A stretch of 64,000 nucleotides of DNA from a virus, in IMG/VR virus record IMGVR_UViG_3300003323_000334, positions 1-64,000 of that record; one strand, given 5' to 3'. A model generated the notes under the pieces. The model was not told the origin of the DNA. It ran no database searches and saw nothing but the letters and a program-made list of their open reading frames with translations. Positions 7,511 through 57,301 of this stretch are shown in pieces; the stretch's first letter is position 1; each line of letters opens with the position of its first letter. Made by a program: the position numbers and the translations under genes.

Positions 7511-7527
7511 AACGAGCACTCTCCCTG

Positions 7528-7920: not shown

Positions 7921-7921
7921 T

Positions 7922-9883: not shown

Positions 9884-9891
9884 AACGACCT

Positions 9892-10212
9892 CTATGAATC
9901 GTAAGACCCGACGCCTTCGATGCGGGCCCTTCTGGTCTTCCCTCCGGGAGTCTCAGCGACCAGATTGATGTAAACGTACTGGTTTTCTTCTATCAGTCCG
10001 GTTACCGAATCGCCAACTAGACCTTCGTAATTCCCACCGCTACCGGTGTAGTTGAGAGTCCCGGAACCTAATGTTACCGGAGCAGTTTTCGGGTACTTAG
10101 TGGTAATCGTGAACGAACACACTGCGTCGGACACAACGGCGCCAGTCCGATCTTTGACATTTCTGAAGTACAGGTTGATGTCCGACCCTATCGGGATCTT
10201 TTTAGTTGCCAT
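9892..10212 (-). CDS. small beta-sandwich-like virion protein (hypothetical)
   Basis: ATG 10212 (MATKKIPIGSD) has a GAGGTG RBS. The track start at 10224 is GTG. The sequence is beta-strand-rich, and the gene lies directly upstream of the portal gene. Confidence 0.45.
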   Translation of the reverse strand: MATKKIPIGSDINLYFRNVKDRTGAVVSDAVCSFTITTKYPKTAPVTLGSGTLNYTGSGGNYEGLVGDSVTGLIEENQYVYINLVAETPGGKTRRARIEGVGSYDS

Positions 10213-10220
10213 TGAGCACC

Positions 10221-11015
10221 TCACGCCGACTCGAACCCAAATAGTCCTGTTATTTCTGGTTCGAAATCGAAAATACCGTAAAGAACTCCTCCAAATTCTT
10301 CAACGTGAACGACTACCGCTTTTACCGTTCCTAGTCCGATAATAGGAGCCACTCCTACAATATTGTCCAACACTGCTACAGGTTGAACTATAGAGGAGTT
10401 ACTAATTAAAGGAGAAATAACGGCTTCAATTGTGACCGAAACAATTAAAGTAGGACTTGTTCCTGTTCCGACAATAGGACTCAAACTGACCGATACATCG
10501 GAGTAAAGAACAGGTTCTATAACGGATTCGATCGCCACTACAGGTCCGATCTGTGCGACGTTGGCCCACACAACGCTCGGACCAACTGCCGAGCTGACCG
10601 AAGTCACAGAGTTCAGATCCACCAAAATGACGATAGCTACAGTCGGAGACGCTATAGCTCCTTGTGCGATAACGCTCGCCGTAGCTATCGTAACTGTTTG
10701 GGTGACAGTTGTCGCTGTTGGGGCGTTAGAAGCGACTACGGCGAGCAATGCAACGACGTTAGCTACGGTTGTCACAGGAGACACGACACTGCTTGTTTCG
10801 ACTACAGGGGTCGCATCTATCTGGTTTACCACGCTGACTACCGGACTTATCGAAGTCGTCGTTTCTACCACAGGACTCAAAACAACAGTGTTATCTATGG
10901 ATACTATAGATCCGGACGGTGTAACAGCCGATCCAATTACCGGAGAGGCTCCAATAACTATCGCACCGCCTCCGGCAGTCTTTCTGTAAAACCACCAGAG
11001 TGCTGCGGTACTCAT
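10221..11015 (-). CDS. extremely Val/Ser/Thr/Ile/Ala/Pro-rich low-complexity protein (hypothetical structural)
   Basis: 264 aa. The start overlaps the upstream stop as TAATG. It contains repeated SPVV/TPVV-type decapeptides and almost no charged residues across ~230 aa. Confidence 0.45.
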   Translation of the reverse strand: MSTAALWWFYRKTAGGGAIVIGASPVIGSAVTPSGSIVSIDNTVVLSPVVETTTSISPVVSVVNQIDATPVVETSSVVSPVTTVANVVALLAVVASNAPTATTVTQTVTIATASVIAQGAIASPTVAIVILVDLNSVTSVSSAVGPSVVWANVAQIGPVVAIESVIEPVLYSDVSVSLSPIVGTGTSPTLIVSVTIEAVISPLISNSSIVQPVAVLDNIVGVAPIIGLGTVKAVVVHVEEFGGVLYGIFDFEPEITGLFGFESA

Positions 11016-11566
11016 TATTCACTCCGGCCTAGAATGATGAACGGATCGCTGTTCGCAGGAGCGCTGCTAAAAGCCGTCGCTACAGTGATCGCACCGGTGC
11101 TGGTGTTGTACGCGCTGATCTTGCGTGACTGACCCTGGAGCGCCCCGTCGGTGAATAATAGGAATGAGTCCTTAAAAAAGTCTGTGCCCTTCCCGGTGAT
11201 CGTGGTGACGAAACTAGTAGCAATAGCTCCTGCATCGTTAACTGATCCTGTAAAGCCGAGACTAGATGGTTGAATATTAACTATCAGGTCTACCCATTCT
11301 GATCCGGCAGCATCTGATAAAACAACGGTAACGTTGTCTGCATCCATCTCAGCCGCGCTCAGATCCACCTGCACCATCTTGGACGATGCCGGGGTAACGG
11401 TCGGAAGCGTAGCCAGGTTCGCTAACGCGCCTCCGTCCTTACTGACCTTCGCGTCACCGGCCGCGATCGACGGGTTCACCTGCGCGCCCGTCGGGTCGGC
11501 TTGCGACGTCAATCCGACGAAGAAACGGAACGCCTGACCTCGGATGCACGGGTTATAGTTTGGCAT
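11015..11566 (-). CDS. hypothetical virion protein
   Basis: ATG 11566 (MPNYNPCIRGQAFRFFVGL) overlaps the upstream stop as TGATG. The longer track ORF (to 11692) would overlap the upstream gene by 127 nt. Confidence 0.5.
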   Translation of the reverse strand: MPNYNPCIRGQAFRFFVGLTSQADPTGAQVNPSIAAGDAKVSKDGGALANLATLPTVTPASSKMVQVDLSAAEMDADNVTVVLSDAAGSEWVDLIVNIQPSSLGFTGSVNDAGAIATSFVTTITGKGTDFFKDSFLLFTDGALQGQSRKISAYNTSTGAITVATAFSSAPANSDPFIILGRSE

Positions 11567-12693
11567 CAGAATATTCCCCCGCCAATGAAACGATTGCGTG
11601 AGCCTGGGCCGACCGCATTCGCAAACGGGTCCGCCGAGTCCAGAATCACCGCGAACGGATAAAACGTCTGACCTAGCGTCCCTTGAGTCCAACCAGACCC
11701 ATCGAAGTAAGTCGTGTTAGGCGTGCCCTGGAACGGCAACAAGGCAATGCTGTTAGCGGTGGCGTTATAGTCGCACTGGAGCAGATTGTATCGAGCTGTA
11801 CTAGCATCCGCGTTGCTCTCCTCGCCGCCGGTGACGCGAACGGTCGTGTTCGGTGGAATAATTACTGAGGACGAAAAGAATCCGGACACCATACCGCTAA
11901 CTCCGGATCCGGCTCCGGGAATCGAAGCGTATCCCAGATTGATTGGCGTGCTTCCGGTCCAAAGACCGACGCGAAACAACCCCGATGGAGTTCCCGTTCG
12001 ACCGTTCAGATAAATTCCGACTCCAGATACGCGTAGAGCGGTGTGAGGTGGCGACGTGAACACCATCCCGGCCTCACGGGCGCCGTAGATGCCGACGCCG
12101 ACCCCGGCGGCGGCGACGTTGTTCACCGGGAACCCGTCATAGGTCCCGTCCGAATACGCGACCCGAATCCCGACGCGCCCGGTGTTGACGGACCAGTTGC
12201 TGCCGCTGTTAGAGGAACTTCCAGCAGCCCACGCACCGGCGAACAGTCCTGTTCCCCCTTGAAGTCCCGTGACGAGTCCGCTTACGTATCGGAACTGCAC
12301 GTTGATCGACGCCGGCGTAGCATTCAAGTTCCGGAACACGATCCAATACAACGTGTTTGCCGTAAGTGCCGTCGTAAATCCGTTAAAATCATAGTATCCC
12401 GGTGCCGAAATTGTTGCAGTCGGAAGCTTACCGGTCTCGATCTGACTCAACGAGTACGGCTGACCATTCCCCGCGTTGGCCGCCCACAAGTCGGCAACTA
12501 TGTCTCCAGAGGCAGGCGCGCCGTTCACCGTCGATACGTAGACCCGAACGGCGTTAAGGGTCTTGTTCCCGGACGGGGAAAAGCTGAATGCCGCATAAGT
12601 TGCGGCAGCATTAGTTCCCATAGCTGTGGCGGTAGGAACCTGTGCAGAGCTGCACAGAATCCCCATTGCGTTGCTCATCAGGTTGGTGGCCAT
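11566..12693 (-). CDS. fibre/receptor-binding-like protein with two tandem beta-sandwich (DUF4082-like) domains
   Basis: 375 aa. An internal duplication is visible: FSFSPSGNKTLNAVRVYVSTVNGAPASGDIVADLWAAN versus VFTSPPHTALRVSGVGIYLNGRTGTPSGLFRVGLWTGS. AGAGGG RBS present. Confidence 0.5.
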   Translation of the reverse strand: MATNLMSNAMGILCSSAQVPTATAMGTNAAATYAAFSFSPSGNKTLNAVRVYVSTVNGAPASGDIVADLWAANAGNGQPYSLSQIETGKLPTATISAPGYYDFNGFTTALTANTLYWIVFRNLNATPASINVQFRYVSGLVTGLQGGTGLFAGAWAAGSSSNSGSNWSVNTGRVGIRVAYSDGTYDGFPVNNVAAAGVGVGIYGAREAGMVFTSPPHTALRVSGVGIYLNGRTGTPSGLFRVGLWTGSTPINLGYASIPGAGSGVSGMVSGFFSSSVIIPPNTTVRVTGGEESNADASTARYNLLQCDYNATANSIALLPFQGTPNTTYFDGSGWTQGTLGQTFYPFAVILDSADPFANAVGPGSRNRFIGGGIF

Positions 12694-26721: not shown

Positions 26722-26870
26722 CGCTCTGTGCGTGCGTTTTACGCGTCGAAAGCGTCAAGATGTAGACGCACACGTTTTGCGCCCCGTTCGTCGCTTTTAG
26801 ACGTGTTCTGTGCGATTTGGCGCGTGTCGCTTCTGACGCGCCGTCATTCAACGTGAGAGAGTAACTCCTT

Positions 26871-37711: not shown

Positions 37712-38917
37712 GTGACCATCAAACTGAACTGGTACACGACCGAGACCGGGTTAACAGCCCGGCTCGGTATCGGGAAGCATCAAAAGACGTTCCGGATTGA
37801 ACGGCGACCCCACGCTTACTGGAAGCGGAATGGGGAAGTGTGGGAACTGTTCTTCGAGAACAAGCGGATTTACGGTCTAGAATCCGTGTACATCGCACCC
37901 GATCTGTTCGGCAAACTGACCTCCGAAGAACAGGACGAGAACGTCCGCAGAAAGCGTGCCGCGAAACAGTCCTTAAAGGACGTTGCCAACGCCATCGCTA
38001 ACGGCAATCAGGCGTCCGTTTACCAAGAAGTGCTGTATTCCCTCCCGCAACGCGACAAGTTCGGCACAAAGCAAGCCTTTATCTACGCCATGAAGGAGGT
38101 GTTTCGACTAACGCATCTTCCGATAATGACTGTGACCGAAAAAGACAACACCAAACAATGGAGTACAGACTCCGAGTTCATTAGATCGTTTCCGCAACGT
38201 CACCGAGAGCAACAGCGACGAACACACGTTGCGTCGCCGATCGCAGCACAGGAAGTAAACGTCCCAGTAAAAACTGAGGCTTTGACAGCGAAGCCTGTCA
38301 AAGCTCTGAAGTACAAAGGTCCAGCTCCTGCTAACCGGAATAAAGAGACGCTAATCCCGGCTAGCATAGGGACCAAAAAGAAGTGTCCTGTTCTGATCGA
38401 AGGAACCAAGTTTAAGCACCTGTACAAATGGGCCGAAAAGACCCGAGACTGGTACCAAGCTAGAGGATATCACGCCGGGATTCTGTTCCTGATCCATACG
38501 TTGATGCACAGCCTTCCTACGTGCAAGCAGGCGTTAGCTGCGGGTCGCAAACTGTCCCTCATTTACAGGGAAGAATACGCCGCAGTCAACGCACAGTTCG
38601 CCGCGATGGTGTCTAAAGAACCTACCGAAGTTAAAAAGGAGGTGCCTGAAAAACAGCCGAAGCTTCCTAGGTCTAAAGAAAAGGACAAATGGGGCTACCG
38701 TGTGAGCACGCGGGCTGCGGCCGTTAACGCCGTGCTCAGCAAAGTGCCAATGTCGAAAGAGAAAATCACGGTGTTGGCAAAAGCACAAGGTGACATCGGT
38801 TCACATCTGTCCACTTTGATCAAACAGAAGTTGGTGGTTCGTACAGAAGAAGGGTTATACCGACTTCGCAAGAAAAAGAAGGTACCAAAACATGGTTCAA
38901 AAAAGAGCGGATCCTGA
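37712..38917 (+). CDS. hypothetical protein with C-terminal linker-histone-like winged helix and Lys-rich tail
   Basis: 401 aa with a GTG start. The C-terminus KWGYRVSTRAAAVNAVLSKVPMSKEKITVLAKAQGDIGSHLSTLIKQKLVVRTEEGLYRLRKKKK is paralogous to 40357-40560. Confidence 0.55.
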   Translation: MTIKLNWYTTETGLTARLGIGKHQKTFRIERRPHAYWKRNGEVWELFFENKRIYGLESVYIAPDLFGKLTSEEQDENVRRKRAAKQSLKDVANAIANGNQASVYQEVLYSLPQRDKFGTKQAFIYAMKEVFRLTHLPIMTVTEKDNTKQWSTDSEFIRSFPQRHREQQRRTHVASPIAAQEVNVPVKTEALTAKPVKALKYKGPAPANRNKETLIPASIGTKKKCPVLIEGTKFKHLYKWAEKTRDWYQARGYHAGILFLIHTLMHSLPTCKQALAAGRKLSLIYREEYAAVNAQFAAMVSKEPTEVKKEVPEKQPKLPRSKEKDKWGYRVSTRAAAVNAVLSKVPMSKEKITVLAKAQGDIGSHLSTLIKQKLVVRTEEGLYRLRKKKKVPKHGSKKSGS

Positions 38918-39573: not shown

Positions 39574-40683
39574 ATGAAAATGTCCAAAGAAGACGCGATC
39601 GCAGTGCTCCTCGCTCTCAAGTTCCAGAACGCAAAGTCCTTTACGACCGCTAAGATCAAGGACAAGATCAACGCTCTGACCGAAATCGTGGACGACTCCA
39701 TGATCAAGGCTATCAAGAACGTCAAGATCGCGAAGCTGCTGCGGGATGCGGTGAAGGCCATCAAGAAGGGCACCGAAATCGAAATCGAAGACCCCAAGGC
39801 AAAGAAGGAGGCCTCCAAGAAGCCTGCAGCCAAGCCTGTGAAGGGCAAGAAGTCTAAGGCTAAGGCTGAAGAGGAGGAAGAAGAGGAAGATTCGGAGGAC
39901 GAAGAGGAAGAAGAGGAAGATTCGGAGGACGAAGAGGAAGACGAAGAAGACTCCGAGGAGGACGAAGAGGAAGACGAGACCGATGAAGACGAAGACGGCG
40001 AAGATGACGAGGACGATGATTCCGATGACGACGATGATGGAGAAGACGATGACAGTGAAGAGGACGATGACGAGTCTGTAGACGAGGATGAGGAAGAAGA
40101 GGACGACGAAGATAACGACTCTGAAGATGATGAAGAAGAGGACGACGAAGAGGACGACGAAGAGGACGACGAAGAGGACGACGAAGAGGACGACGAAGAG
40201 GACGACGAAGAGGACGACTCTGAAGATGATGAAGAAGAGGACGACGAAGAGGACGAACCCGTGTCACCCAAAAAGAAAGGTAAAGACAAAGTGAACAAGA
40301 CCAAAAAGCCGGCCGCAGCTAAGAGCGGTGCCAAGAACGCCGACAAGCCCAAGGACAAGTGGGGCGCGACTCTCGGCACGAGGACTGCCGCGATCAACGC
40401 GGCCATCACTGACAAGCCTCAAACGCTCGGAGAAATCGCGAAGCGGGCGAAGGCCGAATCCATCAGCAGCCACATTAGCAAGTTGAAGGCCGAAGGGTGG
40501 ATCGTTCGCGACGATGACGGCAGGTATTCCATCAATCCGAAGAAGAAGGCGAAGGCGGCAGTGATCCCATCGCCAAAGAAGGCCCCGAAAGAGACAGTAA
40601 AAGAGTCCGCGAAGACCAAGCCGACTGCTAAGGTCTCTAAGAAGGCCGAAGCGGCTCCTGTGAAGAAGACCAAGAAGAAGTAA
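39574..40683 (+). CDS. poly-acidic protein with linker-histone-like winged helix and Lys/Ala/Pro-rich tails
   Basis: 369 aa. A helical N-domain is followed by KKPAAKPVKGKKSKAKA, then ~130 aa made almost entirely of Asp/Glu (39866-40260). The wHTH segment is KWGATLGTRTAAINAAITDKPQTLGEIAKRAKAESISSHISKLKAEGWIVRDDDGRYSI, and the tail ends ...KKAEAAPVKKTKKK. Confidence 0.7.
   Translation: MKMSKEDAIAVLLALKFQNAKSFTTAKIKDKINALTEIVDDSMIKAIKNVKIAKLLRDAVKAIKKGTEIEIEDPKAKKEASKKPAAKPVKGKKSKAKAEEEEEEEDSEDEEEEEEDSEDEEEDEEDSEEDEEEDETDEDEDGEDDEDDDSDDDDDGEDDDSEEDDDESVDEDEEEEDDEDNDSEDDEEEDDEEDDEEDDEEDDEEDDEEDDEEDDSEDDEEEDDEEDEPVSPKKKGKDKVNKTKKPAAAKSGAKNADKPKDKWGATLGTRTAAINAAITDKPQTLGEIAKRAKAESISSHISKLKAEGWIVRDDDGRYSINPKKKAKAAVIPSPKKAPKETVKESAKTKPTAKVSKKAEAAPVKKTKKK
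40135..40218 (+). repeat. 7 perfect tandem copies of GAAGAGGACGAC inside the acidic tract
   Basis: Read directly from the sequence (encodes EEDD x7). A 30-nt unit GAGGAAGAAGAGGAAGATTCGGAGGACGAA is also duplicated at 39871-39930. Confidence 0.9.
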
Positions 40684-40763: not shown

Positions 40764-41216
40764 ATGGCGATGTGTGTGTCGATCGACAAGACGTTCGAAG
40801 CGGCTCATCGTCTCCTTAATCACCCAGGCAAGTGCAGATTCTTACACGGCCACAGCTACAACCTCACCGTTACAATCGGCCGCAAAGACGGCGGCGTTGG
40901 TCCCAGACAAATGGTGATCGACTTCGGAAACGCCAAAGAAATTATAAACGCCGTAGTAGACGGCGGATGGGACCACAATACGATTCTGAACGCGATCGAT
41001 CCCTTGGCAAAACGGCCTGATCTGATCGGTCGAGATCCGATGATCGTTTCGTGTACCGGACACGATCAAGATCCTACAGCCGAAATGATCGCTTTGCGCC
41101 TCAAAGAAGACATTGAGTCGGCTTTGAACGGTCGTTTTCCGAACGCGTTCGAAATCCTCAACGTCGTCGTCAAAGAGACCGACAAGTGCTCGGCCGAATG
41201 GTACCCTGATCGTTAA
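40764..41216 (+). CDS. queD: 6-carboxy-5,6,7,8-tetrahydropterin synthase
   Basis: 150 aa. FEAAHRLLNHPGKCRFLHGHSYNLTVTI carries the T-fold C-x3-HGH signature of QueD/PTPS. Confidence 0.85.
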   Translation: MAMCVSIDKTFEAAHRLLNHPGKCRFLHGHSYNLTVTIGRKDGGVGPRQMVIDFGNAKEIINAVVDGGWDHNTILNAIDPLAKRPDLIGRDPMIVSCTGHDQDPTAEMIALRLKEDIESALNGRFPNAFEILNVVVKETDKCSAEWYPDR

Positions 41217-41228
41217 CAGGAGAGTGCG

Positions 41229-41954
41229 ATGTATCCGCTCATCATGCGACCGAACACGCAACACCCGAAAGGTCCGCTGTACCGACAAGACGGTCAACTC
41301 GACGTGGTCGAGGTGTTCGAAACGATTCAAGGCGAAGGTCCGTACACCGGTCGTCCCGCAGTGTTCGTTCGCCTCGAAGGATGCAACCTGAAGTGTCCTG
41401 GGTGTGACACCGACTACACCAGTAACCGTGAGTTGTATTCTCCGACCATGCTGTTGACTATGATCAACGACAGGTTCGCTCGGCGCAAAGAAATCGATGG
41501 TGACAACACGCTGATCGTCCTGACTGGCGGCGAACCACTCAGGCAGAACATCGCGCCATTCGTTCGTGACGCCAAGCACGATGGTTGGAACATTCAGCTG
41601 GAGACGAACGGAACACTCTTCAACGAAGACCTGCCCGTGCTCGGGATGGACATCGTGTGCAGTCCTAAAACACCTAACGTCCGAGACGAACTGAAGGATC
41701 ACATCTGCTGCCTGAAGTACGTCATCGAGGCCGGCTTCGTTAGCGAGGAAGATGGGTTGCCGATCAGTGTTATGGGTCTGAACGTCACTCCTGCTCGCCC
41801 GTGGCCAACGTTCAAAGGCGAGGTCATCGTTCAACCTTTCGATGTGGGGAACGCTCGCGCCAACATTAATAACTTGGACGCCGCGGTAGAAAGCTGTCTG
41901 AAGTTCGGGTACACACTCGGGGTTCAGGTACACAAGATTGCTCGGCTGAAGTGA
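41229..41954 (+). CDS. queE: 7-carboxy-7-deazaguanine synthase (radical SAM)
   Basis: FETIQGEGPYTGRPAVFVRLEGCNLKCPGCDTDY is the characteristic QueE N-terminus and cluster motif. Confidence 0.85.
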   Translation: MYPLIMRPNTQHPKGPLYRQDGQLDVVEVFETIQGEGPYTGRPAVFVRLEGCNLKCPGCDTDYTSNRELYSPTMLLTMINDRFARRKEIDGDNTLIVLTGGEPLRQNIAPFVRDAKHDGWNIQLETNGTLFNEDLPVLGMDIVCSPKTPNVRDELKDHICCLKYVIEAGFVSEEDGLPISVMGLNVTPARPWPTFKGEVIVQPFDVGNARANINNLDAAVESCLKFGYTLGVQVHKIARLK

Positions 41955-42155
41955 CTCGCTCAGAATCGATATTTTCGTTATGACCGAATGCTTCCGCGAA
42001 CCGAGGTGAACGATGCAGTGGATTCGTGGTCCGCCGGATGAACTAACGTCTGAAATGGGCGGCGATCGTGTGTATCGGCCATTAGACCTTCTTTGAGCGG
42101 TCGCTCATACGGAGGAAACTCGTGAGGAGAAACACCATGTAAAGTAATAAATCAA

Positions 42156-42190
42156 ACCTAGAGAGCTATTGGTAAGCTAGCTCTCTAGGT
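42156..42190 (+). other. 12-bp perfect stem-loop in the queE-folE spacer
   Basis: ACCTAGAGAGCT (42156-42167) pairs with AGCTCTCTAGGT (42179-42190) around an 11-nt loop. GTTATATAT follows, with no clean U-run. Confidence 0.6.
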
Positions 42191-42199
42191 GTTATATAT

Positions 42200-42296
42200 G
42201 GCAGGTGGAGCTAGCTCCAGCTAGGTGCTGTTATCGTACTCGGCACACTTAACTGGAGTCGGCAGCCCTCATGGGGTTGAAATCCCCAGCCTGCCC
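42200..42296 (+). other. tRNA-like three-way-junction RNA element (not a canonical tRNA)
   Basis: Acceptor-like 7-bp stem GGCAGGT (42200-42206) with GCCTGCC (42289-42295). T-arm-like TGGGG-TTGAAAT-CCCCA (42272-42288). Central long hairpin CTCCAG (42215-42220) with CTGGAG (42253-42258), enclosing GTGCTG/CGGCAC. No D-arm or 7-nt anticodon loop could be drawn. Confidence 0.35.
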
Positions 42297-42317
42297 TTCC
42301 TTTAAAAGGAGTATTTT

Positions 42318-42905
42318 ATGAAGTTCAACGCCACTGCCGTAAGCTACGCTGCTACCCAGGATTTGTTCCGAGAACTGATCAGCAGGTTCGACAACGAGCC
42401 TTCACGTCCAGGATTAAAAGATACTCCGGCTCGCTTAGAGAAAGCCTGGCAGGAAATGTTTTCAGGTTACTTCGTGACCGCCGAAAACATCGCCAAAATG
42501 CTCACCACGTTCGAAGAAGAAAAATCGGACGATATGGTGATTCAGAGGTTCATTCCGTTCAGCAGCACCTGTGAACATCATTTACTCCCATTTATGGGGC
42601 ACGCCACCATCGCGTACATTCCGGACGGACGCATCTTAGGACTGTCTAAATTCAGTAGGTTGCTAGACGTGTTCACCAAACGAATGCAGAATCAGGAACG
42701 CATTACGGTACAAGTCGCCGAAGCGTTTATGGAGCATCTGAAGCCGAAGGGTGCGGCTTGCGTTCTTACGGCGCAACACCTCTGCATGGAGTGTAGAGGT
42801 GTTAAAGTAGCAGGCGTCGAAACGACGACCTGTTGCCTGCGAGGCTGTTTCAGTTCCGAACCTACGCGATCTGAGTTCCTCAGGTTCGCAACAACGAAAG
42901 GGTAA
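42318..42905 (+). CDS. folE: GTP cyclohydrolase I
   Basis: PFSSTCEHHLLPFMGHATIAYIP, GLSKFSRLLDVFTKRMQNQERIT and TAQHLCMECRGVK are FolE type I signatures. AAGGAG RBS present. Confidence 0.9.
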   Translation: MKFNATAVSYAATQDLFRELISRFDNEPSRPGLKDTPARLEKAWQEMFSGYFVTAENIAKMLTTFEEEKSDDMVIQRFIPFSSTCEHHLLPFMGHATIAYIPDGRILGLSKFSRLLDVFTKRMQNQERITVQVAEAFMEHLKPKGAACVLTAQHLCMECRGVKVAGVETTTCCLRGCFSSEPTRSEFLRFATTKG

Positions 42906-42906
42906 C

Positions 42907-43191
42907 ATGGGCTTCAAGCAACAGCTTTTGAACTTCGAGAAGGCAAAGGTAAAAACGAAACCGCCGCAAACGCAAAAGAAAACCGAAGCAAAGCTCCCGA
43001 AAAAGGGAACACCTGAGTCCGCGTACAGAGATGGAGTGAAGGACATGGAACAACTTCGTTCCATGTTCAGCAAACGGTTTTGTAAACACCTGGTGTTCAT
43101 TCTCGGATTCTCCAGAAAAGGACCGCAGAGCGATCCGTTAATCAGGTCGTACTGTGACGGTTTTAACGACAAACTGGAGGACAAGGCGTGA
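42907..43191 (+). CDS. hypothetical basic protein
   Basis: 94 aa, 1 nt after the folE stop and overlapping the next gene (GTGA). Confidence 0.45.
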   Translation: MGFKQQLLNFEKAKVKTKPPQTQKKTEAKLPKKGTPESAYRDGVKDMEQLRSMFSKRFCKHLVFILGFSRKGPQSDPLIRSYCDGFNDKLEDKA

Positions 43192-43655
43192 CAACGCTCG
43201 AAGAATTCAATCAATGGTTTCAGACCAACAAATCGGTAGTAACGCGACGTTCTCCGTACGACGCGGCTAAACTCGCTTGGTTTGCTGCAAAGCAAACTCC
43301 TTTATTTGACGCAGGAAAATCGCCAGCAGATGTTTCGACGTTCATCATCGTTAAAACCGAGTTCGTTGGTTTTCACCGGTGGTGTGATGCGCCTGTGAAT
43401 GTGTCGTTCCTTCGCCAATTCCATCGACACGTGTTCAAAGTGGAGGTGACAATCAGAGTAGATCATCAAAATCGGGCCCTAGAGTTCTTCACCGAGCAAC
43501 AGAAAGTGGAGCTGTTCTGTCAAAAGTTTCACAACCAACATTTTGAAAAGTCCTGCGAAATGTTGGCTCAAGAAATCCTAGACAGTAATCCGGAGTATCA
43601 TTCCGTCAAGGTTAGCGAAGACGGTGAGAACGCCGGTATTGTGATTCGTAACTAA
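43188..43655 (+). CDS. divergent T-fold (QueD/PTPS-like) paralogue candidate
   Basis: 155 aa. FVGFHRWCDAPVNVSFLRQFHRHVFKVEVTIRV mirrors the F-x-A-x-H ... HGH-x-(Y/F)-x-V-x-V layout of QueD, but with HRH and no Cys four residues before it. Confidence 0.4.
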   Translation: MTTLEEFNQWFQTNKSVVTRRSPYDAAKLAWFAAKQTPLFDAGKSPADVSTFIIVKTEFVGFHRWCDAPVNVSFLRQFHRHVFKVEVTIRVDHQNRALEFFTEQQKVELFCQKFHNQHFEKSCEMLAQEILDSNPEYHSVKVSEDGENAGIVIRN

Positions 43656-43676
43656 CCTTTAACTTCTGAGTACGCC

Positions 43677-44966
43677 ATGCTCTACTACGTCCCTCTTGAG
43701 TGCTACCGTCAGCGTTACACCATGCAACTCTCAGCCCCAAAAGTCGGGTGGTTCGAGAGTAAATGGATCGAGCACAACATTCCATACGTTCGAGTCGAAC
43801 CGAGTTACGCCGCTCTCGGCGAAAACTTTCCGAACAGAATGATTAACAACGGATCGGTACTCGATGCTGTAGGACGCAGCCGATACGCCATGAGTCAAAT
43901 CGACAACCTGCTGCTGATGCTGGATCGAGGAGAAATCAAGGACTCTGACGTAATCTACTTTGACGACTTCTGGCACCCAGGTATCGAGGCGTTTAAATAC
44001 ACCTGTGACATTTTAGGTAAACGACCACGAATGTACGCCTACTGCTGGGCTCAGTCGGTCGATCAGTTCGACTTCACCAACAAGATGAAACACTGGATTC
44101 GTCTGATCGAAAAAGGATACAGCGCGATACTCGATGGGGTGTTCGTTGCGAACACAGGCCTAAAGGAGCTGCTGTACGATCACGCCGTGTGTGACAGTCT
44201 AAAAATCCATGTGGTCGGTCTACCGTTCGACACCAAAGAAGTGCTGAGTCGAATGCCGGATTCGTACCGCGAGTTCATCTTAAATCCGCAATCACAAGAC
44301 ACGCCTAGTCCTAGACTGGATCGGGTAGTGTTCTCGTCTAGATGGGACTCAGAAAAGAACCCGATATTCTTTTTGAGGCTCGCCGCACTTGCAGCACGCG
44401 ATCCGGAGATGAGTCACGTCAAGTTCGCAGTGTGTTCGTCGGCACCGGAAATGAAAAGCAACAACAGCGGGCTTTTGACCGTGCTGTTCGGAGCAACAAA
44501 GGATCTGTCGAACTTCGAACTTCACACCAATCTGTCTAAAGAGGCGTACTACAAGCTGTTGGCCGAGTCCAAAGTTCAGTTCAACTGTGCCGACCAAGAT
44601 TGGACTTCGTTCACACTGCTGGAAGCGGTTACTGCCGGATGCTATCCACTCTATCCGTACTTCAGGAGTTTTTCGGAAGTGTTCTTGAACGGGTCGAGGT
44701 TTTTGTACGAGCACAAAAACCTCGACGCGGCGTATTCGAAACTGAAACAGTCTATATTAAACCAGTACCCGTTGCCAGATTCAGGAAAGTGGTCACACGA
44801 AGAGATCATAGGTCGCATGTGGATCGCCAAACGATTCAACGCCACTTGGTACCGAATCGCCAAGCATATGGGCGTCATTCCTGAAAACTTCTCTACCACT
44901 GTAGAGCACATCACCCCACCGTACGATCGCGAGCAAGTGAAGCGTGTCGATTGGGCGCGTCTCTAG
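43677..44966 (+). CDS. GT-B fold glycosyltransferase (candidate)
   Basis: 429 aa. The C-terminal half VVFSSRWDSEKNPIFFLRLA ... FTLLEAVTAGCYPLYPYF fits the GT-B donor-binding domain and E-x7-E-type region. Confidence 0.55.
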   Translation: MLYYVPLECYRQRYTMQLSAPKVGWFESKWIEHNIPYVRVEPSYAALGENFPNRMINNGSVLDAVGRSRYAMSQIDNLLLMLDRGEIKDSDVIYFDDFWHPGIEAFKYTCDILGKRPRMYAYCWAQSVDQFDFTNKMKHWIRLIEKGYSAILDGVFVANTGLKELLYDHAVCDSLKIHVVGLPFDTKEVLSRMPDSYREFILNPQSQDTPSPRLDRVVFSSRWDSEKNPIFFLRLAALAARDPEMSHVKFAVCSSAPEMKSNNSGLLTVLFGATKDLSNFELHTNLSKEAYYKLLAESKVQFNCADQDWTSFTLLEAVTAGCYPLYPYFRSFSEVFLNGSRFLYEHKNLDAAYSKLKQSILNQYPLPDSGKWSHEEIIGRMWIAKRFNATWYRIAKHMGVIPENFSTTVEHITPPYDREQVKRVDWARL

Positions 44967-45001
44967 AATCGCTTTACGTCGCGTTTTAAGCGTGTTCGTT
45001 T

Positions 45002-45044
45002 CGCGATCGGGCGCCGAGTAGCGTTGCGCCCGATCGCGTGTTTT
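45002..45044 (+). terminator. rho-independent terminator after the glycosyltransferase gene
   Basis: A 13-bp perfect stem CGCGATCGGGCGC / GCGCCCGATCGCG with an 11-nt loop, then TGTTTT. Confidence 0.7.
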
Positions 45045-45130
45045 AGACGCGTTTAATCGCATTTGGCGCGTGCGCGAAAGCGACGCGCAATAATAAACGA
45101 AACTATACATCCTTGTGCGAGACTTCTACC

Positions 45131-45871
45131 ATGACCTCAACCTATACCACGCTCACGCATCCTATCCTTCAAAACACACTCCAAACCAACTCGATCAATT
45201 TCGGCATCACGACCAGATGTACCATGATTTGCCCGAAATGCTCGATCGACGTTCCTGGAATTAAGAACAGGAAAGAAGCTCAAGACGCCTCAATCTCTAC
45301 GATTCATTGGACGGCATCTGTGCTGACCGCTCGCGGTACATTCCAGCGAGTTCACATCACAGGAGGCGAACCGACGATTCACCATGCTTTCGGTTTGATG
45401 ACACCAGAGTTCAAAGACTGGTTCAAGGCTGAGTACCTTACTCTTGAAACCAACGGCGCTCTAGTCTTGAAGCACATCGAGGTCATCAAAAAGCACTTCG
45501 ACCTGGTGTTCATAACGCATTACGTTAAGGGCGCAATTTACCCGGACAATTTCGACAACACCGAAATCATCAAACGAGCTAAACAAGAACTCGGCGACAA
45601 GTTGATAACTGAGCCGCCGGTCCGACATGACCTAGAGCACATTAAATTGTCCTTGAGAACCGAGGATCAGAAGCGAGCGGAACACGTCGCCTGTTCCAAG
45701 TTTTACGAACCGGGATTACCGTGTGCGTGGTACGACGGATATTTGTACCCGTGCTGCGTCAGTTTCGGAATCGATCGCGACAGGTACAAAGTGCCGGTAA
45801 CCGAAGACTGGCGAACAGTGATTCAAGACCAGAACAAAGGGTGCAGCAATTGCCTCTATCGGGGAACCTAA
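45131..45871 (+). CDS. radical SAM enzyme with Cys-rich C-terminal (SPASM/twitch-like) region
   Basis: ATG 45131; the track start at 45113 is TTG. C-x3-C-x2-C motif in GITTRCTMICPKCS, SAM-binding ITGGEPT, and C-terminal CAWYDGYLYPCC ... GCSNC. Confidence 0.7.
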   Translation: MTSTYTTLTHPILQNTLQTNSINFGITTRCTMICPKCSIDVPGIKNRKEAQDASISTIHWTASVLTARGTFQRVHITGGEPTIHHAFGLMTPEFKDWFKAEYLTLETNGALVLKHIEVIKKHFDLVFITHYVKGAIYPDNFDNTEIIKRAKQELGDKLITEPPVRHDLEHIKLSLRTEDQKRAEHVACSKFYEPGLPCAWYDGYLYPCCVSFGIDRDRYKVPVTEDWRTVIQDQNKGCSNCLYRGT

Positions 45872-45872
45872 A

Positions 45873-46880
45873 ATGAGCGGTGCTAATCTAGGACACAAAC
45901 GTAAAGGCCGAGCCAAGACCATTGTGTCTCTAGACGGCCTGCCTCGCAGGTGCCGGAGCTTCATGCCTGATTCCGGTGCCCACAGTTTGTTCAACCTACA
46001 TTGCTTCGAAACCGCTAAACAAAACGGTAAAGAAGTCCGAGTTTTCAAAAAACCGAACGAACGGTATAAATGGTACTCACCTGACGGTAACAAGCTGTCT
46101 AAAGAGTTCCGTGCGTATCTGGACAAATACGTCGGCTTCATCGACAAGTACGGTAAAGGAATAGACCACTACGTTACAGTGGACGCGATCTACAATCCGG
46201 AGATATCATGGAAGAGTCTCAAGTACCTAGAGTCGTGGGGTCTGAAACCGATTCCAGTAATCCACCACAGAACCTCGATGCGCTGGATCGAAAAGCATTT
46301 GGACTCTGGTTACAACTACATCGGGCTTGGAGGTCTCGGGCAGCAAAGCACCAAGAACACTTACACGATATGGGCGGATCAGGTGTTCGACCGAATATGT
46401 CAGGGGAGCAAACGTCTGCCGTGTGTTAAGACTCACGGCTTTGCGATGACGAGCTATTCTCTAATACTCCGCTACCCTTGGTGGAGCGTTGACAGTTCTT
46501 CCGTGTTCAAATGTGCCGGTAACGGTAGCATCTTCGTTCCACACAAGAGACAAGGCTCTTTCACTTTCGGTGAGGAGCCTTACGTCATGGGTGTTAGTCA
46601 CAGGTCTAGTGCAAAGCAGTCCGACAAGCGACACTACGACAACCTAACAAAAGGTGAAAAGGCGATCGTCGCCGAATGGCTGAAGTCGATCGACATGATC
46701 CTAGGAACTGTGTCAGAAGACGGAGAAATGGACGAGTACGGAGTGTACTCGTCTTACAACGCCAGAGTGGTCGCTAATCTGAGGTTTTTCGAACGCTTTT
46801 TGGACTGGCTACCAAAATGGCCTTGGTCGTTTAAAATTCGACCGAAACGCGGCTTCTTGAAATGGGAGGATTTGACGTGA
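45873..46880 (+). CDS. dpdA: DpdA-type DNA (guanine) transglycosylase, TGT superfamily
   Basis: 335 aa. FMPDSGAHSLF, YIGLGGLG, KTHGFAMTS and WWSVDSSS match the phage DpdA/TGT motif series. It starts 1 nt after the radical-SAM gene stop. Confidence 0.8.
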   Translation: MSGANLGHKRKGRAKTIVSLDGLPRRCRSFMPDSGAHSLFNLHCFETAKQNGKEVRVFKKPNERYKWYSPDGNKLSKEFRAYLDKYVGFIDKYGKGIDHYVTVDAIYNPEISWKSLKYLESWGLKPIPVIHHRTSMRWIEKHLDSGYNYIGLGGLGQQSTKNTYTIWADQVFDRICQGSKRLPCVKTHGFAMTSYSLILRYPWWSVDSSSVFKCAGNGSIFVPHKRQGSFTFGEEPYVMGVSHRSSAKQSDKRHYDNLTKGEKAIVAEWLKSIDMILGTVSEDGEMDEYGVYSSYNARVVANLRFFERFLDWLPKWPWSFKIRPKRGFLKWEDLT

Positions 46881-49022: not shown

Positions 49023-50246
49023 ATGAAATTTAATGGACGAGGCTTCTTCGCTCTGTCAACGCTCATGCAGACGAAGAAGCCTCTACCGATCGTAGCCAAC
49101 TGCCAATCGTGTCGGTTGTGTACCACGGGTTGTAAAACTCCATACATGAAACCGACAGGAAAGGGAAAGCAGAAGATCCTGATCGTCGGCGAGTTTCCGG
49201 ACTCGGCAGACGACAGAACAGGAAAACCTTTTAGAGGAGAATCCGGGAAGCGAGCCAGATCGGAAGTGTCGGCAGCCGGATTAGACACGGACGCTGACGT
49301 AGTTTGGACCAACGCTCTGATATGCAACCCGCCAGGCGATCGCCCTCCGATGTCGAAGATCATTCCGTACTGTCGTCCGAACTTGATCAAAACGATCGAG
49401 TCGGTCAAACCGAACGTCATCTTGTTAATGGGGTCTATCGCGGTTAAAAGTCTGATAGGCTTTCTTTGGAAAGAAGACGTAGGCAAACTAAACAGATGGA
49501 TCGGATGGCGTATTCCGTGTCAAAGGTTTAATGCATGGATATGTCCGACTTATCATCCAGATCACCTGAGGAACAAGAATCATCCGGTAATGGACTTGAT
49601 GTTCAAGCAGCAGGTCCGATGGGCGTGTTCACAAACGAAACCTCCTTGGGAAACTGTTCCTGATTTAAGGAGTAGAGTCCGCGTCGTATTCGACCCTGAC
49701 GAAGCCGCATCGATCATCCGAAAAATGACGGATAATGTGAAACGGCCGGTTGCGTTCGACTATGAAACCAACATGCTGAAACCGGAGAACGAGCGGGCCA
49801 AGATCGTGTGTTGCTCCGTCAGTGACGGAAAGACCACGATCGCGTTCCCATGGATCGGTGAAGCGGTCAAAGCGATGAAGGCGTTTTTCCGGTCGAACGT
49901 TCCTAAAATCGCCTCGAACATGAAGTTCGAAGATCGTTGGACGAATTGTAAAGTCGGTGTAAGCGTTCGAAACTGGAAGCTGGACACGATGTTGGCGGCG
50001 CACGTTCTGGACAACAGACCAGAAATCACAAGTATCAAGTTTCAGGCTTTCGTCCGTTTAGGACAAGAAAGCTACGACGACCACATTAAGCCGTTCTTGA
50101 AATCGAAAGAGTCCGGCGGGTACGCAGAAAACCGAATTGATGAAGTCGATCCGCACGACCTGATGACCTACTGCGCCTTAGACTCTCTACTCGAATGGCG
50201 CGTAGCCTTAAAGCAATACGAGGAGCTTAGCAATGATCACGGCTAA
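49023..50246 (+). CDS. family-4 UDG-like domain fused to DnaQ-like 3'-5' exonuclease (N-terminal part of a split family-A polymerase)
   Basis: UDG4 motifs: CQSCRLC, ILIVGEFPDSADDRTGKPFRGESGK, VWTNALICNPP. Exonuclease motifs: VAFDYETNML (Exo I) and YCALDSLL (Exo III). Confidence 0.75.
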   Translation: MKFNGRGFFALSTLMQTKKPLPIVANCQSCRLCTTGCKTPYMKPTGKGKQKILIVGEFPDSADDRTGKPFRGESGKRARSEVSAAGLDTDADVVWTNALICNPPGDRPPMSKIIPYCRPNLIKTIESVKPNVILLMGSIAVKSLIGFLWKEDVGKLNRWIGWRIPCQRFNAWICPTYHPDHLRNKNHPVMDLMFKQQVRWACSQTKPPWETVPDLRSRVRVVFDPDEAASIIRKMTDNVKRPVAFDYETNMLKPENERAKIVCCSVSDGKTTIAFPWIGEAVKAMKAFFRSNVPKIASNMKFEDRWTNCKVGVSVRNWKLDTMLAAHVLDNRPEITSIKFQAFVRLGQESYDDHIKPFLKSKESGGYAENRIDEVDPHDLMTYCALDSLLEWRVALKQYEELSNDHG

Positions 50247-54533: not shown

Positions 54534-56024
54534 ATGAAACTCCCGACGCTGATTCCTACAACGAAACAGGCCTACGAGTTTTTCCATCGTGGAACTTTAG
54601 CCTTCAGCCAAATGGAAGCTAGAGGAATTAAGATCGATGTGGATTATCTCGAAGCGACTATGACGGACGTGGGAAATCAGATCAAGCAGCTGGAGAGGGA
54701 GTTCAAAGGATCTAAAATCTGGAAGCAGTGGCAGCGACGCTTCGGGGACAAAGCAAACGTTCAAAGCGTGCCTCAATTAGGCACGCTTCTTAAAAGCATT
54801 GGCTACAAGTCGATCGAAAAGACCGATACAGGAAAGGACAAATGGGACGAACGCGCCGTTGAGCGAATCGGGTTGCCGGAACTCAACACCTACATCCTGA
54901 TGAAGAAGCTCAAGAAGGCGAACGGCACTTACTTGAAAGGGATTCATCGCGAGCTAGACTCGGATGGATTTCTTCATCCGTCGTACAATTTGGCGGGAGG
55001 CCTCGAAGACGACCAAAAAGGTGGTGCTATGAGCTATCGTGGCAGCTCTAGCAATCCAAACTTCACGAACATCCCGATCAGAAATAAGACCATTGGGAAG
55101 CTCATCAGAAAAGCGGTAGTCGGGTACGGTGATTTTGAAATCGGTGAAATCGATCACAGCACGATCGAAGTCCGGGTTGCAGGTATGGTGACCCGGGATA
55201 AGCGGCTGATGAACTACGTCAAGAACAGTCCGCCGCTAGACATGCACCGTGATCGAGCGATGGAACTTTTCTTTCTGAAAGAAGATCAGGTCGTAAAGAA
55301 AGGTACCAGAGACGCGGCCAAAAACAAGTTCGTATTTCCACAGTTCTATGGATCGTTCTACGTCGATTGCGCCGAAGCAATTTGGGAGGCTATGGAACGA
55401 GGTGAGTACAAAGTAGGTAAACTGGACGAGAACGGTAACGTTGTTGATTCGGACGTACTGATCAAAGATCACCTGAAAAAGCACGGCGTAACTAAACGCG
55501 GTTTGTGCGATGAGGAACAAGCTCCTAAAAAGGGGACGTTTGAGTATCACGTTAAGACCGTCGAAGACAAAATGTGGAACGAGGTCTTCAAGGAGTATAC
55601 AGCCTGGAAGAAGGCTTCGTACAACAAGTACCTTAAAACAGGCGAGGTTCAACTTCCTACAGGATTCATAGCCCGCGGACCGTACAGACGAAATCAAGTG
55701 TTGAATCTGCCGATTCAAGGACCGGCGTTCCATATTCTGCTTTGGGGGATCATAGAACTTCAGGCCGAGCTAAAACGGCTGAAAATGAAGTCCTACATAT
55801 TCGGCCAAATTCACGACTGCATATTGTGCTACATCCACAAGAAAGAGCGGCAGCAGTTCTTGAACATGGCTAAGGAAATTATGACACAAAAGATCCGCAA
55901 ACACTGGAGTTGGATTAATCTTCCTTTGGAGATTGAGGTCGATATCGTCCCTAGTGGGCTAAGTTGGAATGAAAAGCAACCGTGGCACCAAACTAAAGAG
56001 GGGTTATGGGTGAGCAAAGCGTAA
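54534..56024 (+). CDS. family-A DNA polymerase, polymerase domain only
   Basis: 496 aa. Motif B is RDAAKNKFVFPQFYGS and motif C region is IFGQIHDCILCY. No exonuclease domain is present here; that domain is encoded at 49023-50246. Confidence 0.85.
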   Translation: MKLPTLIPTTKQAYEFFHRGTLAFSQMEARGIKIDVDYLEATMTDVGNQIKQLEREFKGSKIWKQWQRRFGDKANVQSVPQLGTLLKSIGYKSIEKTDTGKDKWDERAVERIGLPELNTYILMKKLKKANGTYLKGIHRELDSDGFLHPSYNLAGGLEDDQKGGAMSYRGSSSNPNFTNIPIRNKTIGKLIRKAVVGYGDFEIGEIDHSTIEVRVAGMVTRDKRLMNYVKNSPPLDMHRDRAMELFFLKEDQVVKKGTRDAAKNKFVFPQFYGSFYVDCAEAIWEAMERGEYKVGKLDENGNVVDSDVLIKDHLKKHGVTKRGLCDEEQAPKKGTFEYHVKTVEDKMWNEVFKEYTAWKKASYNKYLKTGEVQLPTGFIARGPYRRNQVLNLPIQGPAFHILLWGIIELQAELKRLKMKSYIFGQIHDCILCYIHKKERQQFLNMAKEIMTQKIRKHWSWINLPLEIEVDIVPSGLSWNEKQPWHQTKEGLWVSKA

Positions 56025-56243: not shown

Positions 56244-56528
56244 ATGATCACCATAGTGATCGCAGTCACCTGTGCGGCGCCAGTTCCGACTCATTTAATG
56301 AAGGAACGTGCTCCTGTCGGAACATGGGTGAATCATGGATACGGCTACTTGAGAGTAGCGGAAATAAAAACCAAAAAGAACGGTGATAAGTTCTACCGGT
56401 TAACTGACGTGGTCGAGTCCAACAAAAATTGGAAAATGAATTGGGTCGCAGAACACAATCTGATTGCTGTAATGGAACATCCGGATAAGTTCTTCTTGAT
56501 ATTTAGCGACCCTGAGTTCAACAAATGA
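56244..56528 (+). CDS. hypothetical protein
   Basis: 94 aa with an AAAGGAG RBS. Confidence 0.45.
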   Translation: MITIVIAVTCAAPVPTHLMKERAPVGTWVNHGYGYLRVAEIKTKKNGDKFYRLTDVVESNKNWKMNWVAEHNLIAVMEHPDKFFLIFSDPEFNK

Positions 56529-57301
56529 AAACCTACAAGTTCAAAAGAGGAGTTCTGATCAACGGAGACTGTTTAGACGTCCTTCCAAAACTCAAAGCCG
56601 AATCGGTGGATTTAGTAGTAGCCGATCCGCCGTTTAACATCGGTTACGAATACGACCAATATTTCGACAATTTGCTACCGGAAGAATACTACGCTTGGTC
56701 GTGTAAGTGGATCGACTGCTGCGTTCGCGCACTGAAGCCAACGGGTTCGATGTTCGTGGTGATCGGCGACGAGTACGCGGCGGAGTTGAAGTTCGCGTTA
56801 GACCGCAAACTTCATATGCGGAACTGGATTATCTGGTACTACACTTTTGGTGTGTACTCGAAACACAAATTCGGAAGAGATCATGCTCACATACTTTATT
56901 ACTGCAAAGATCCAAAACAACGAACCTTTCGAGCCGATGATATTAAGGTGCCTTCTAGAAGGCAAACACTATATCAAGATAAACGGGCAGACGCTAAAGG
57001 TCGAGTTCCTGGAGACGTTTGGACCTTTCCTCGAGTCTGTGGAACCTTCAAAGAGCGGAACACCGTCGGCCACAAATGTCAACTCCCCGAATCCCTCGTT
57101 GATCGAATTGTTAAGGTCGCTTCGCGCCCAGGTGGACTCGTTCTCGACCCGTTTGCTGGAACTGGAACGACGCTTGCAGTTTCAAAGCGACTTAAAAGGC
57201 GGTTTATAGGCGTCGAACTGTCAACGCGATATTCACGCTACATTGCGTCGAGAGTGCGCAACGTGCGATCGGGCGCCGATAATAGCTCTGTGCGAAAATA
57301 A
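56525..57301 (+). CDS. DNA methyltransferase, beta-class N6-adenine/N4-cytosine type
   Basis: Motif IV DLVVADPPFNIGYEY precedes motif I VLDPFAGTGTT (beta permutation). No restriction endonuclease partner is seen. Confidence 0.75.
   Translation: MKTYKFKRGVLINGDCLDVLPKLKAESVDLVVADPPFNIGYEYDQYFDNLLPEEYYAWSCKWIDCCVRALKPTGSMFVVIGDEYAAELKFALDRKLHMRNWIIWYYTFGVYSKHKFGRDHAHILYYCKDPKQRTFRADDIKVPSRRQTLYQDKRADAKGRVPGDVWTFPRVCGTFKERNTVGHKCQLPESLVDRIVKVASRPGGLVLDPFAGTGTTLAVSKRLKRRFIGVELSTRYSRYIASRVRNVRSGADNSSVRK

Follow-up and report, generated by a model that had tools for sequence, protein, structure and literature searches.

A virus-only radical-SAM gene with a predicted Twitch domain, set beside a glycosyltransferase gene in a phage 7-deazaguanine cluster, as a candidate for sugar tailoring

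The 64,000-nt stretch of viral DNA analysed here (the window; positions 1 to 64,000 of IMG/VR record IMGVR_UViG_3300003323_000334) carries a cluster of 7-deazaguanine genes in which a small radical S-adenosylmethionine (radical-SAM) gene, hereafter rSAM, stands between the genes of a glycosyltransferase (GT) and of a DpdA-type DNA transglycosylase. Read from genes and models alone, the rSAM protein has, in our judgement, about an even chance of being a tailoring enzyme that would alter, by oxidation or by epimerisation, the sugar that the adjacent GT would attach to 7-deazaguanine. The system is a variant of the known phage 7-deazaguanine systems, with an uncharacterised, virus-only family of Twitch radical-SAM proteins. 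The gene itself, its motifs, its Twitch fold, its conserved context and the link of its family to GTs are documented below.

45131..45871, + strand: Twitch-domain radical-SAM gene (rSAM), ATG to TAA, 246 amino acids (aa)

The gene is real, since homologues were found in 25 clusters among 5.8 billion protein clusters (E-values down to 3.6e-88); full-length relatives make up 19 of these 25 clusters, at 44–57% identity. Its GC content is that of the neighbouring genes. An alternative start (TTG at 45113) would add six residues at the N-terminus, and the homologues begin at the equivalent of the ATG at 45131. Against Pfam PF04055, the protein scores 28.2 bits for a gathering cut-off of 29.5, and a precomputed match to this model exists in 22 of the 25 homologue clusters. 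The motifs listed in an earlier note on this DNA, made without database searches (the original prediction), were each located in the open reading frame (ORF): CTMICPKC, a CX3CX2C motif, at residues 30–37 (nt 45218–45241), ITGGEPT at residues 76–82 (with GGE at nt 45362–45370), CAWYDGYLYPCC at residues 198–209 and GCSNC at residues 237–241. The distance of 1 nt to the dpdA start given there is also exact, with the stop TAA at 45869–45871, a single A at 45872 and the dpdA ATG at 45873.

Conservation was judged on alignments of 22 and of 50 diverse members of the rSAM family. Invariant among the 50 members are the cysteines of the CX3CX2C motif (C30, C34, C37), G79, E80, H84, W227 and the C-terminal cysteines C188, C208, C238 and C241, with G78 and C209 conserved in at least 90% of them; in the alignment of 22, the three CX3CX2C cysteines and every residue of T77-G78-G79-E80-P81 are likewise without variation. 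The C-terminus reads C188-X14-G203-X4-C208(C209)...C238-X2-C241 (nt 45692–45853), and the chain ends five residues past C241, with neither a CX5CX3C segment nor a final cysteine. In SPASM domains, the seven-cysteine motif CX9-15GX4C-gap-CX2CX5CX3C-gap-C, of which CX9-15GX4C is the first half, holds two auxiliary clusters (PMC6231123). Because the second half of this motif is absent, the C-terminal domain of rSAM is predicted from its sequence to be a Twitch domain, with room for one auxiliary cluster, and not a full SPASM domain; for the label “SPASM-like” used in the original prediction, Twitch is the proper term. The AlphaFold2 (AF2) model (predicted local distance difference test, pLDDT, 86.8) places strands at residues 198–201 and 204–206, forming a beta-hairpin, and a helix at residues 227–232, as in SPASM/Twitch domains (PMC6231123). 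Moreover, the NCBIfam model NF033640 (“twitch domain-containing radical SAM protein”) is matched by 19 of the 50 family members. Among Twitch enzymes, an auxiliary cluster fully ligated by four cysteines is the BtrN state, which is tied to two-electron oxidation, and in MoaA the auxiliary cluster is bound by three cysteines and leaves an iron site open (PMC9012708, PMC6231123). Since four cysteines are available in rSAM, its predicted auxiliary cluster would resemble the fully ligated state of BtrN rather than the open site of MoaA.

The best full-length structural match of the rSAM model in the PDB is SpeY (E 7.8e-11, TMq 0.65, 248 columns), and BtrN also matches over the full length (TMq 0.57); for viperin and MoaA, the alignment is confined to the N-terminal ~150 residues, the modelled core superposing on the cores of viperin, MoaA and SpeY with a root-mean-square deviation of ~3 Å over ~150 residues. 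Judged from the model, rSAM would be BtrN/SpeY-like over its full length, including the four-cysteine Twitch domain. By sequence, it does not belong to the BtrN/SpeY family (13–22% identity; SpeY profile match limited to residues 21–145; BtrN at E 2e-3).

Several other assignments were tried and rejected, all of them on matches confined to the radical-SAM core. For a QueE paralogue, the QueE model TIGR03963 gave 13.5 bits for a cut-off of 260 and BLASTP 25% identity over 92 aa (E 0.003), which agrees with the earlier statement that rSAM is a second radical-SAM enzyme distinct from QueE. For a MoaA orthologue, TIGR02666 gave 33.7 bits for a 284-bit cut-off, over residues 22–120 only. A full SPASM peptide maturase, a viperin-like enzyme and an NrdG-type activase were discarded too, with scores well under the family cut-offs. 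No homology assigns rSAM to a family whose established substrate is unrelated, an assignment that the original prediction had listed among the grounds for its own refutation. Structural matches in BFVD are weak (template modelling score, TM, 0.40–0.61; 11–18% identity) and without functional annotation. They include unannotated radical-SAM proteins of the Campylobacter phages CP21, CP220, IBB35, F379, CP20 and CPt10 (TM 0.39–0.51); the DNA of CP220 has been reported to carry the 7-deazaguanine derivative ADG.

The link to sugars comes from the wider family. At E ≤1e-30, an exhaustive profile search retrieved at least 105 representative clusters (50% identity), a number that rises to 584 when E ≤1e-10 is allowed. 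Full-length relatives at 24–33% identity never stand near deazaguanine genes; their setting is phage cassettes in which GT2 glycosyltransferases and FkbM/TylF-type methyltransferases are encoded, and they often come as paralogous pairs. Ten multidomain relatives were scanned, six of which are fused to a GT2 domain (one of these also to GT9, another also to FkbM) and a seventh to an O-methyltransferase domain. Apart from anything seen in the window, these fusions link the family with the chemistry of carbohydrates. The functional evidence points to the GT side of rSAM rather than to its dpdA side: given the position next to the GT gene, the relatives linked to GTs and methyltransferases, and the structural matches to sugar and cyclitol dehydrogenases, the likely substrate would be a sugar on the base and not the deazapurine ring.

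In the window, rSAM is part of a colinear array on one strand, QueD-QueE-FolE-DpdL-GT4 glycosyltransferase-rSAM-DpdA, whose other members are as follows.

40764..41216, + strand: QueD (6-carboxytetrahydropterin synthase); Pfam PTPS E 1.3e-24, PHROG 2389 E 3.5e-27
41229..41954, + strand: QueE (7-carboxy-7-deazaguanine synthase, the first radical-SAM gene); PHROG 2076 E 2.4e-53, Pfam Radical_SAM above cut-off
42318..42905, + strand: FolE (GTP cyclohydrolase I); Pfam PF01227 E 4e-61
42907..43191, + strand: small conserved ORF, 94 aa; 56% identical counterpart at the same position in the related locus L001
43188..43655, + strand: DpdL (proposed decarboxylase of 7-carboxy-7-deazaguanine, CDG, to 7-deazaguanine), 155-aa T-fold protein; PHROG 17812 E 2.1e-16
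43677..44966, + strand: GT4-like (retaining-type) glycosyltransferase of GT-B fold, 429 aa; AF2 pLDDT 90.7 and Foldseek
45873..46880, + strand: DpdA-type guanine/7-deazaguanine DNA transglycosylase, 335 aa; PHROG 887 E 4.9e-30

The QueE that the original prediction had placed at 41229 is borne out by its PHROG match. The 94-aa ORF found no family in the Pfam and PHROG scans, and DpdL carries the segment LRQFHRHVF, which fits the published DpdL signature LxxxHRHxF. Foldseek matches of the GT are GlgM, MshA, PglA and BshA (E ~1e-11, TM ~0.62), its homologues carry Pfam Glycos_transf_1, and R222, K227 and E316 (an R-x4-K plus E arrangement) are invariant; with its modelled GT4 fold and these kept residues, the neighbouring GT is a credible enzyme. 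The DpdA of the window is DpdA1-like, with an N-terminal extension of ~80 aa and a strongly basic isoelectric point (pI 9.56). It is 34% identical to the enzyme of Edwardsiella phage ZHS (E 8e-40) and 31% to that of phage 9g, and it has no BLASTP similarity to the DpdA3 of phage phiST. Single-sequence searches of the PDB with the GT and with DpdA returned no match. No match to a QueC query turned up in the 64-kb window, which leaves ~16 kb of the ~80-kb record outside it, or in eight related loci; the product base should therefore be CDG or, via DpdL, 7-deazaguanine. By its gene content (FolE, QueD, QueE, DpdL and DpdA, without QueC), the array resembles the 7-deazaguanine (dDG-type) pathway.

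Close homologues of rSAM (43–57% identity) come from nine distinct metagenomic phage loci, the window included, all of which have QueD-QueE-FolE-DpdL-GT-DpdA as far as the contig extends. The family is virus-only: a scan of 185,579 cellular genomes gave N-terminal core matches and no full-length rSAM relative, and none of 50,697 GenBank phage records was matched by megablast with the cluster or tblastn with rSAM. The original prediction had called for a survey of co-occurrence with dpdA. The order GT-rSAM-DpdA is indeed found in eight of the nine loci (window, L001, L007/L020, L021, L177, L178, L179 and L180), and it fails in L003/L004, where rSAM lies ~3 kb downstream, between ThyX and a UDG-exonuclease gene (UDG, uracil-DNA glycosylase). 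The stop of rSAM overlaps the start of the downstream gene in every locus, including L003, in which that gene encodes the UDG-exonuclease; this is therefore compact operon packing and not a specific tie to dpdA. As for the idea that the pairing with dpdA signals modification of the base before or after its insertion, membership of a deazaguanine operon and the tight packing against dpdA hold, and the pairing turns out to be less informative than the link to the GT. In L179, the order DpdL-GT-rSAM-DpdA is kept, with an intein-bearing DpdA and with a GT-B protein of divergent type, 21% identical to the window GT. The contig carrying an intermediate homologue (P0146, locus L181) is cut short upstream of the gene, which makes its context uninformative.

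The GT is far more widespread than rSAM: its family comprises no fewer than 336 protein clusters and is present in 589 or more IMG/VR loci. It is tied to the deazaguanine pathway by gene content: of 83 viral loci with the GT, 63 also have DpdL, 45 FolE, 42 QueE and 21 a window-type DpdA. The same set holds rSAM in none, which therefore makes it a rare and optional add-on to a widespread DpdL–GT module. Phages of the same lineage (L094–L096) have the GT followed directly by DpdA, without rSAM. Such optional presence is as expected for a tailoring step. The GT4-like GT and DpdL recur as a pair, usually adjacent (window 43188–44966; L097–L176; L005; L093), also in the cultured phages Synechococcus BUCT-ZZ01 (L005), Burkholderia BCSR5 (L093), Xanthomonas X1 and BUDD, and Sinorhizobium Phosso, which suggests an undescribed sugar-bearing deazaguanine pathway independent of rSAM. 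In BUCT-ZZ01, a gene annotated as xanthine-guanine phosphoribosyltransferase (L005, 4084–4545) lies between QueE and the DpdL/QueD/FolE/GT genes, a hint at phages in which the deazaguanine base becomes a nucleotide, instead of or besides being exchanged into DNA.

The route proposed for the window is the following, in which we infer the substrate, the chemistry and the order of the steps. FolE, QueD and QueE would make CDG, and, without QueC, DpdL would decarboxylate it to 7-deazaguanine, to which the GT4-like enzyme would add a sugar from a nucleotide-sugar donor. The rSAM enzyme would then cleave SAM at its CX3CX2C cluster, and the resulting 5'-deoxyadenosyl radical would take a hydrogen atom from a carbon of that sugar. 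Two outcomes can be envisaged: either the fully cysteine-ligated auxiliary cluster would accept an electron and leave a keto-sugar, as in BtrN and SpeY, or a hydrogen would be returned from the opposite face to yield an epimer, as in HygY, the near-invariant C209 beside the ligand C208 being a candidate hydrogen donor. Finally, the strongly basic DpdA would exchange guanine in DNA for the deazaguanine base. The sugar might be added and tailored on the free base ahead of insertion, on the nucleotide-sugar donor, or on the DNA once the base is in it; because the genes follow the order DpdL-GT-rSAM-DpdA, and because the pI of GT and rSAM is near neutral (versus 9.56 for DpdA), action before insertion is weakly favoured. 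A precedent for the glycosylation step exists in huimycin biosynthesis, where HuiG, a GT4-type enzyme, glycosylates a 7-deazapurine free base (bioRxiv 10.64898/2026.04.15.718813). It is possible, if rather less than probable, that guanine in the DNA of these phages is replaced by a base as yet undescribed, namely a GT4-glycosylated 7-deazaguanine whose sugar, where rSAM is present, would be oxidised, epimerised or radical-cyclised onto the base.

Several points weigh against sugar tailoring by rSAM. The Twitch fold serves reactions as diverse as cyclisation (MoaA), epimerisation (EpeE, HygY), thioether formation (SkfB) and decarboxylation (BlsE), and structural likeness among Twitch enzymes does not fix the reaction. 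A profile of the C-terminal domain only retrieved nothing significant from the PDB, neither SpeY nor BtrN, and, among curated sequence models, MoaA comes out nearest for each of the 50 family members, though far under its cut-off. No partner that would use a keto-sugar (aminotransferase, reductase) was seen in the cluster. No report of a glycosylated 7-deazaguanine in DNA was found in open-access papers and preprints; eight 7-deazaguanine derivatives have been described in phage DNA, none of them sugar-bearing (PMC10516641). Lastly, the activity of DpdL is unproven, its heterologous reconstitution in E. coli having failed (PMC10516641). Searches of the literature on SpeY/Twitch enzymes and on DpdL yielded nothing beyond that paper.

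At face value, the position of rSAM might rather suggest that it acts on the 7-deazapurine ring or nucleotide itself, for instance by making a C–C bond or adding a substituent at C7 or C8, before or after insertion by DpdA. Radical-SAM enzymes do take part in phage DNA hypermodification, in thymidine systems. The translational coupling to dpdA in eight of nine loci would fit such a role, as would the nearest curated sequence model, since the radical chemistry of MoaA takes place on GTP at guanine C8, and decarboxylation by DpdL would expose an electron-rich C7–H fit for radical addition. We nevertheless consider a base-directed reaction unlikely: the MoaA match reflects the shared N-terminal core only (33.7 versus 284 bits), the four auxiliary-cluster cysteines are invariant, unlike the guanine-binding open iron site of MoaA, rSAM is detached from dpdA in L003, and the relatives at 24–33% identity have no deazaguanine genes nearby, being beside or fused to glycosyltransferases instead. 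These same relatives raise the question of whether rSAM could work outside the DNA pathway altogether, on another glycan, a protein or a peptide (a virion or host glycoconjugate, or a substrate akin to the RiPPs, which are peptides of ribosomal origin modified after translation), and be merely placed in an early/replication operon. Distant relatives in GT2/FkbM cassettes near terminase and structural genes (as in L002) do point to the chemistry of glycans and not of DNA, and the peptide epimerase EpeE/YydG is matched weakly over the full length in structure and has in common with rSAM a “YPCC” motif, without statistical significance for the latter. Yet the close clade occurs solely inside the deazaguanine cluster (nine of nine loci), the insertion point between GT and DpdA is kept even with the divergent GT of L179, the GC content of rSAM equals that of its neighbours, and neither a small precursor-peptide gene nor a RiPP recognition domain is evident, the 246-aa protein having no extra domain; such an outside role seems to us distinctly improbable.

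Very improbable, in our view, is a function as an alternative or helper decarboxylase, in which rSAM would, like the BlsE-type radical decarboxylases, remove or process the carboxyl group at C7 of CDG and thereby supply the activity found wanting in E. coli with DpdL by itself. The authors of that heterologous reconstitution did raise the possibility of missing enzymes (PMC10516641), and the radical-SAM decarboxylase BlsE is among the structural matches of rSAM, although weakly so (E 1.9e-4). However, dDG phages (phiST and relatives) have no homologue, the tblastn search of the 50,697 phage records having come back empty, rSAM is present in none of the 83 DpdL/GT loci, and its relatives stand in glycosyltransferase contexts without deazaguanine genes.

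In the window, the genes of the GT and of the Twitch radical-SAM enzyme are flanked by that of the proposed CDG decarboxylase and that of the DNA transglycosylase. Were sugar tailoring by rSAM correct, a glycosylated purine analogue would be known from DNA for the first time, as would radical-SAM tailoring of a sugar on a DNA base. With a GT–DpdL pair in hundreds of viral contigs, glycosylated deazaguanines would be a widespread and unrecognised class of DNA hypermodification, and rSAM a single-gene add-on altering the sugar, plausibly evading host nucleases that recognise modified DNA. For a virus-restricted radical-SAM family, so far uncharacterised and repeatedly fused to GTs, the proposal also offers a role that can be put to the test, and it may bear on the failed reconstitution of DpdL alone.

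Regarding regulation, the original prediction had endowed rSAM with a promoter-like cassette of its own (45041–45096), in which a consensus scan found no sigma-70-type promoter. The GT–rSAM spacer is 164 nt long, folds moderately well (z = -2.6) and contains an inverted repeat.

45002–45014 / 45026–45038, + strand: perfect 13-bp inverted repeat (hairpin), terminator- or attenuator-like, in the GT–rSAM spacer

The hairpin (45002..45038) is followed by GTGTTTTAG, and the T-run rule of the terminator scan was not passed; one of its arms is the GC-rich motif GCGATCGGGCGCC, which also occurs at ~16057 and 57263. Downstream of it, a cassette of the form TTTTAGACG[C/T]GTT...ATTTGGCGCGTG lies at 45041–45072 and has a second copy at 26795–26826, the two standing upstream of the genes starting at 45131 and 26871, respectively. 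This cassette could be a phage-specific regulatory element, two copies being too few to judge. Further upstream, the 363-nt ORF-free gap between QueE and FolE (41955–42317) folds far better than shuffled controls (z = -3.84) and features a long near-perfect hairpin (~42155–42191) and a tRNA-T-arm-like stem-loop by its 3' end; at the same position, L001 has two ORFs. Neither Rfam (at the gathering threshold on the window, and permissively on 41900–45200) nor ARAGORN gave a match.

The surroundings of the cluster are a phage replication module, with helicases, sliding clamp, clamp loader, UDG-exonuclease, PolA, ribonucleotide reductase, ThyX, DNA methylase, RecA and FEN. The methylase of this module is an N6/N4 DNA methyltransferase (56525–57301; Pfam PF01555, E 8.9e-53), and a second, independent DNA modification is therefore probably carried. 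DNA polymerase A is split (49023–50246 and 54534–56024), a UDG-like domain fused to the 3'-5' exonuclease domain having a gene of its own and the polymerase domain another, ribonucleotide reductase and ThyX lying in between, a layout common to all related loci; UDG-fused phage PolA enzymes are reportedly the subject of a 2025 preprint. Ahead of the cluster, two adjacent proteins (37712–38917 and 39574–40683) have a similar C-terminal segment (KDKWG...T/SRxAAxNA...), and the second of them, in which a very long low-complexity stretch rich in Asp/Glu and a tail rich in Lys are found, could act as a DNA mimic or be histone-like. Unusual architectures were also noted in the related loci: in L179, DpdL is fused to a C-terminal extension of ~190 aa (7078–8010) and DpdA reaches 644 aa, with two homologous halves ~340 aa apart (9760–11694); Hint/intein domains are found in the QueE of L180 (1378–2670), and an intein in the ribonucleotide reductase of L094 (13494–16559).

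Compared with known systems, rSAM has in common with QueE that both are radical-SAM proteins of the same pathway with shared core motifs, to the point that rSAM weakly matches PHROG 2076 (E 1.7e-6). QueE differs in having no Twitch domain and in its low similarity to rSAM (25% identity over 92 aa), and a genuine QueE is already resident at 41229–41954. MoaA, the GTP 3',8-cyclase, is likewise a Twitch radical-SAM enzyme and acts on a guanine nucleotide, but its chains are of 340 aa with a different C-terminal region, and its three cysteine ligands and open iron site (PMC9012708) contrast with the four invariant cysteines of the rSAM family. The aminoglycoside/aminocyclitol Twitch dehydrogenases SpeY and BtrN are closer in architecture, being small single chains (269–270 aa for BtrN, 246 aa here) with CX3CX2C and a C-terminal Twitch domain, four cysteines for one auxiliary cluster, and a genomic association with sugar-handling enzymes. 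They are separated from rSAM by its 13–22% identity and its sequence-profile match confined to the N-terminal core, and by the fact that the rSAM family is virus-only and located in a DNA-modification operon.

At the level of the pathway, the resemblance to HuiG lies in a GT4-family enzyme (likened by family) and in a 7-deazapurine free base from the same FolE/QueD/QueE route. Unlike the system of the window, the huimycin pathway belongs to actinobacterial secondary metabolism, starts from preQ0, involves neither DpdA nor radical-SAM tailoring, and leads to a product that is not in DNA. Also comparable is the dDG system of Cellulophaga phage phiST, FolE-QueD-QueE-DpdL-DpdA3 (PMC10516641). The window differs from it by a DpdA1-like transglycosylase in the place of DpdA3 and by the GT4 GT and the Twitch rSAM between DpdL and DpdA, neither of which has a phiST homologue; it shares with phiST the QueD, QueE, FolE, DpdL order followed by the transglycosylase, without QueC, the location in the replication module of a ~80-kb phage, and a DpdL bearing the signature LxxxHRHxF.

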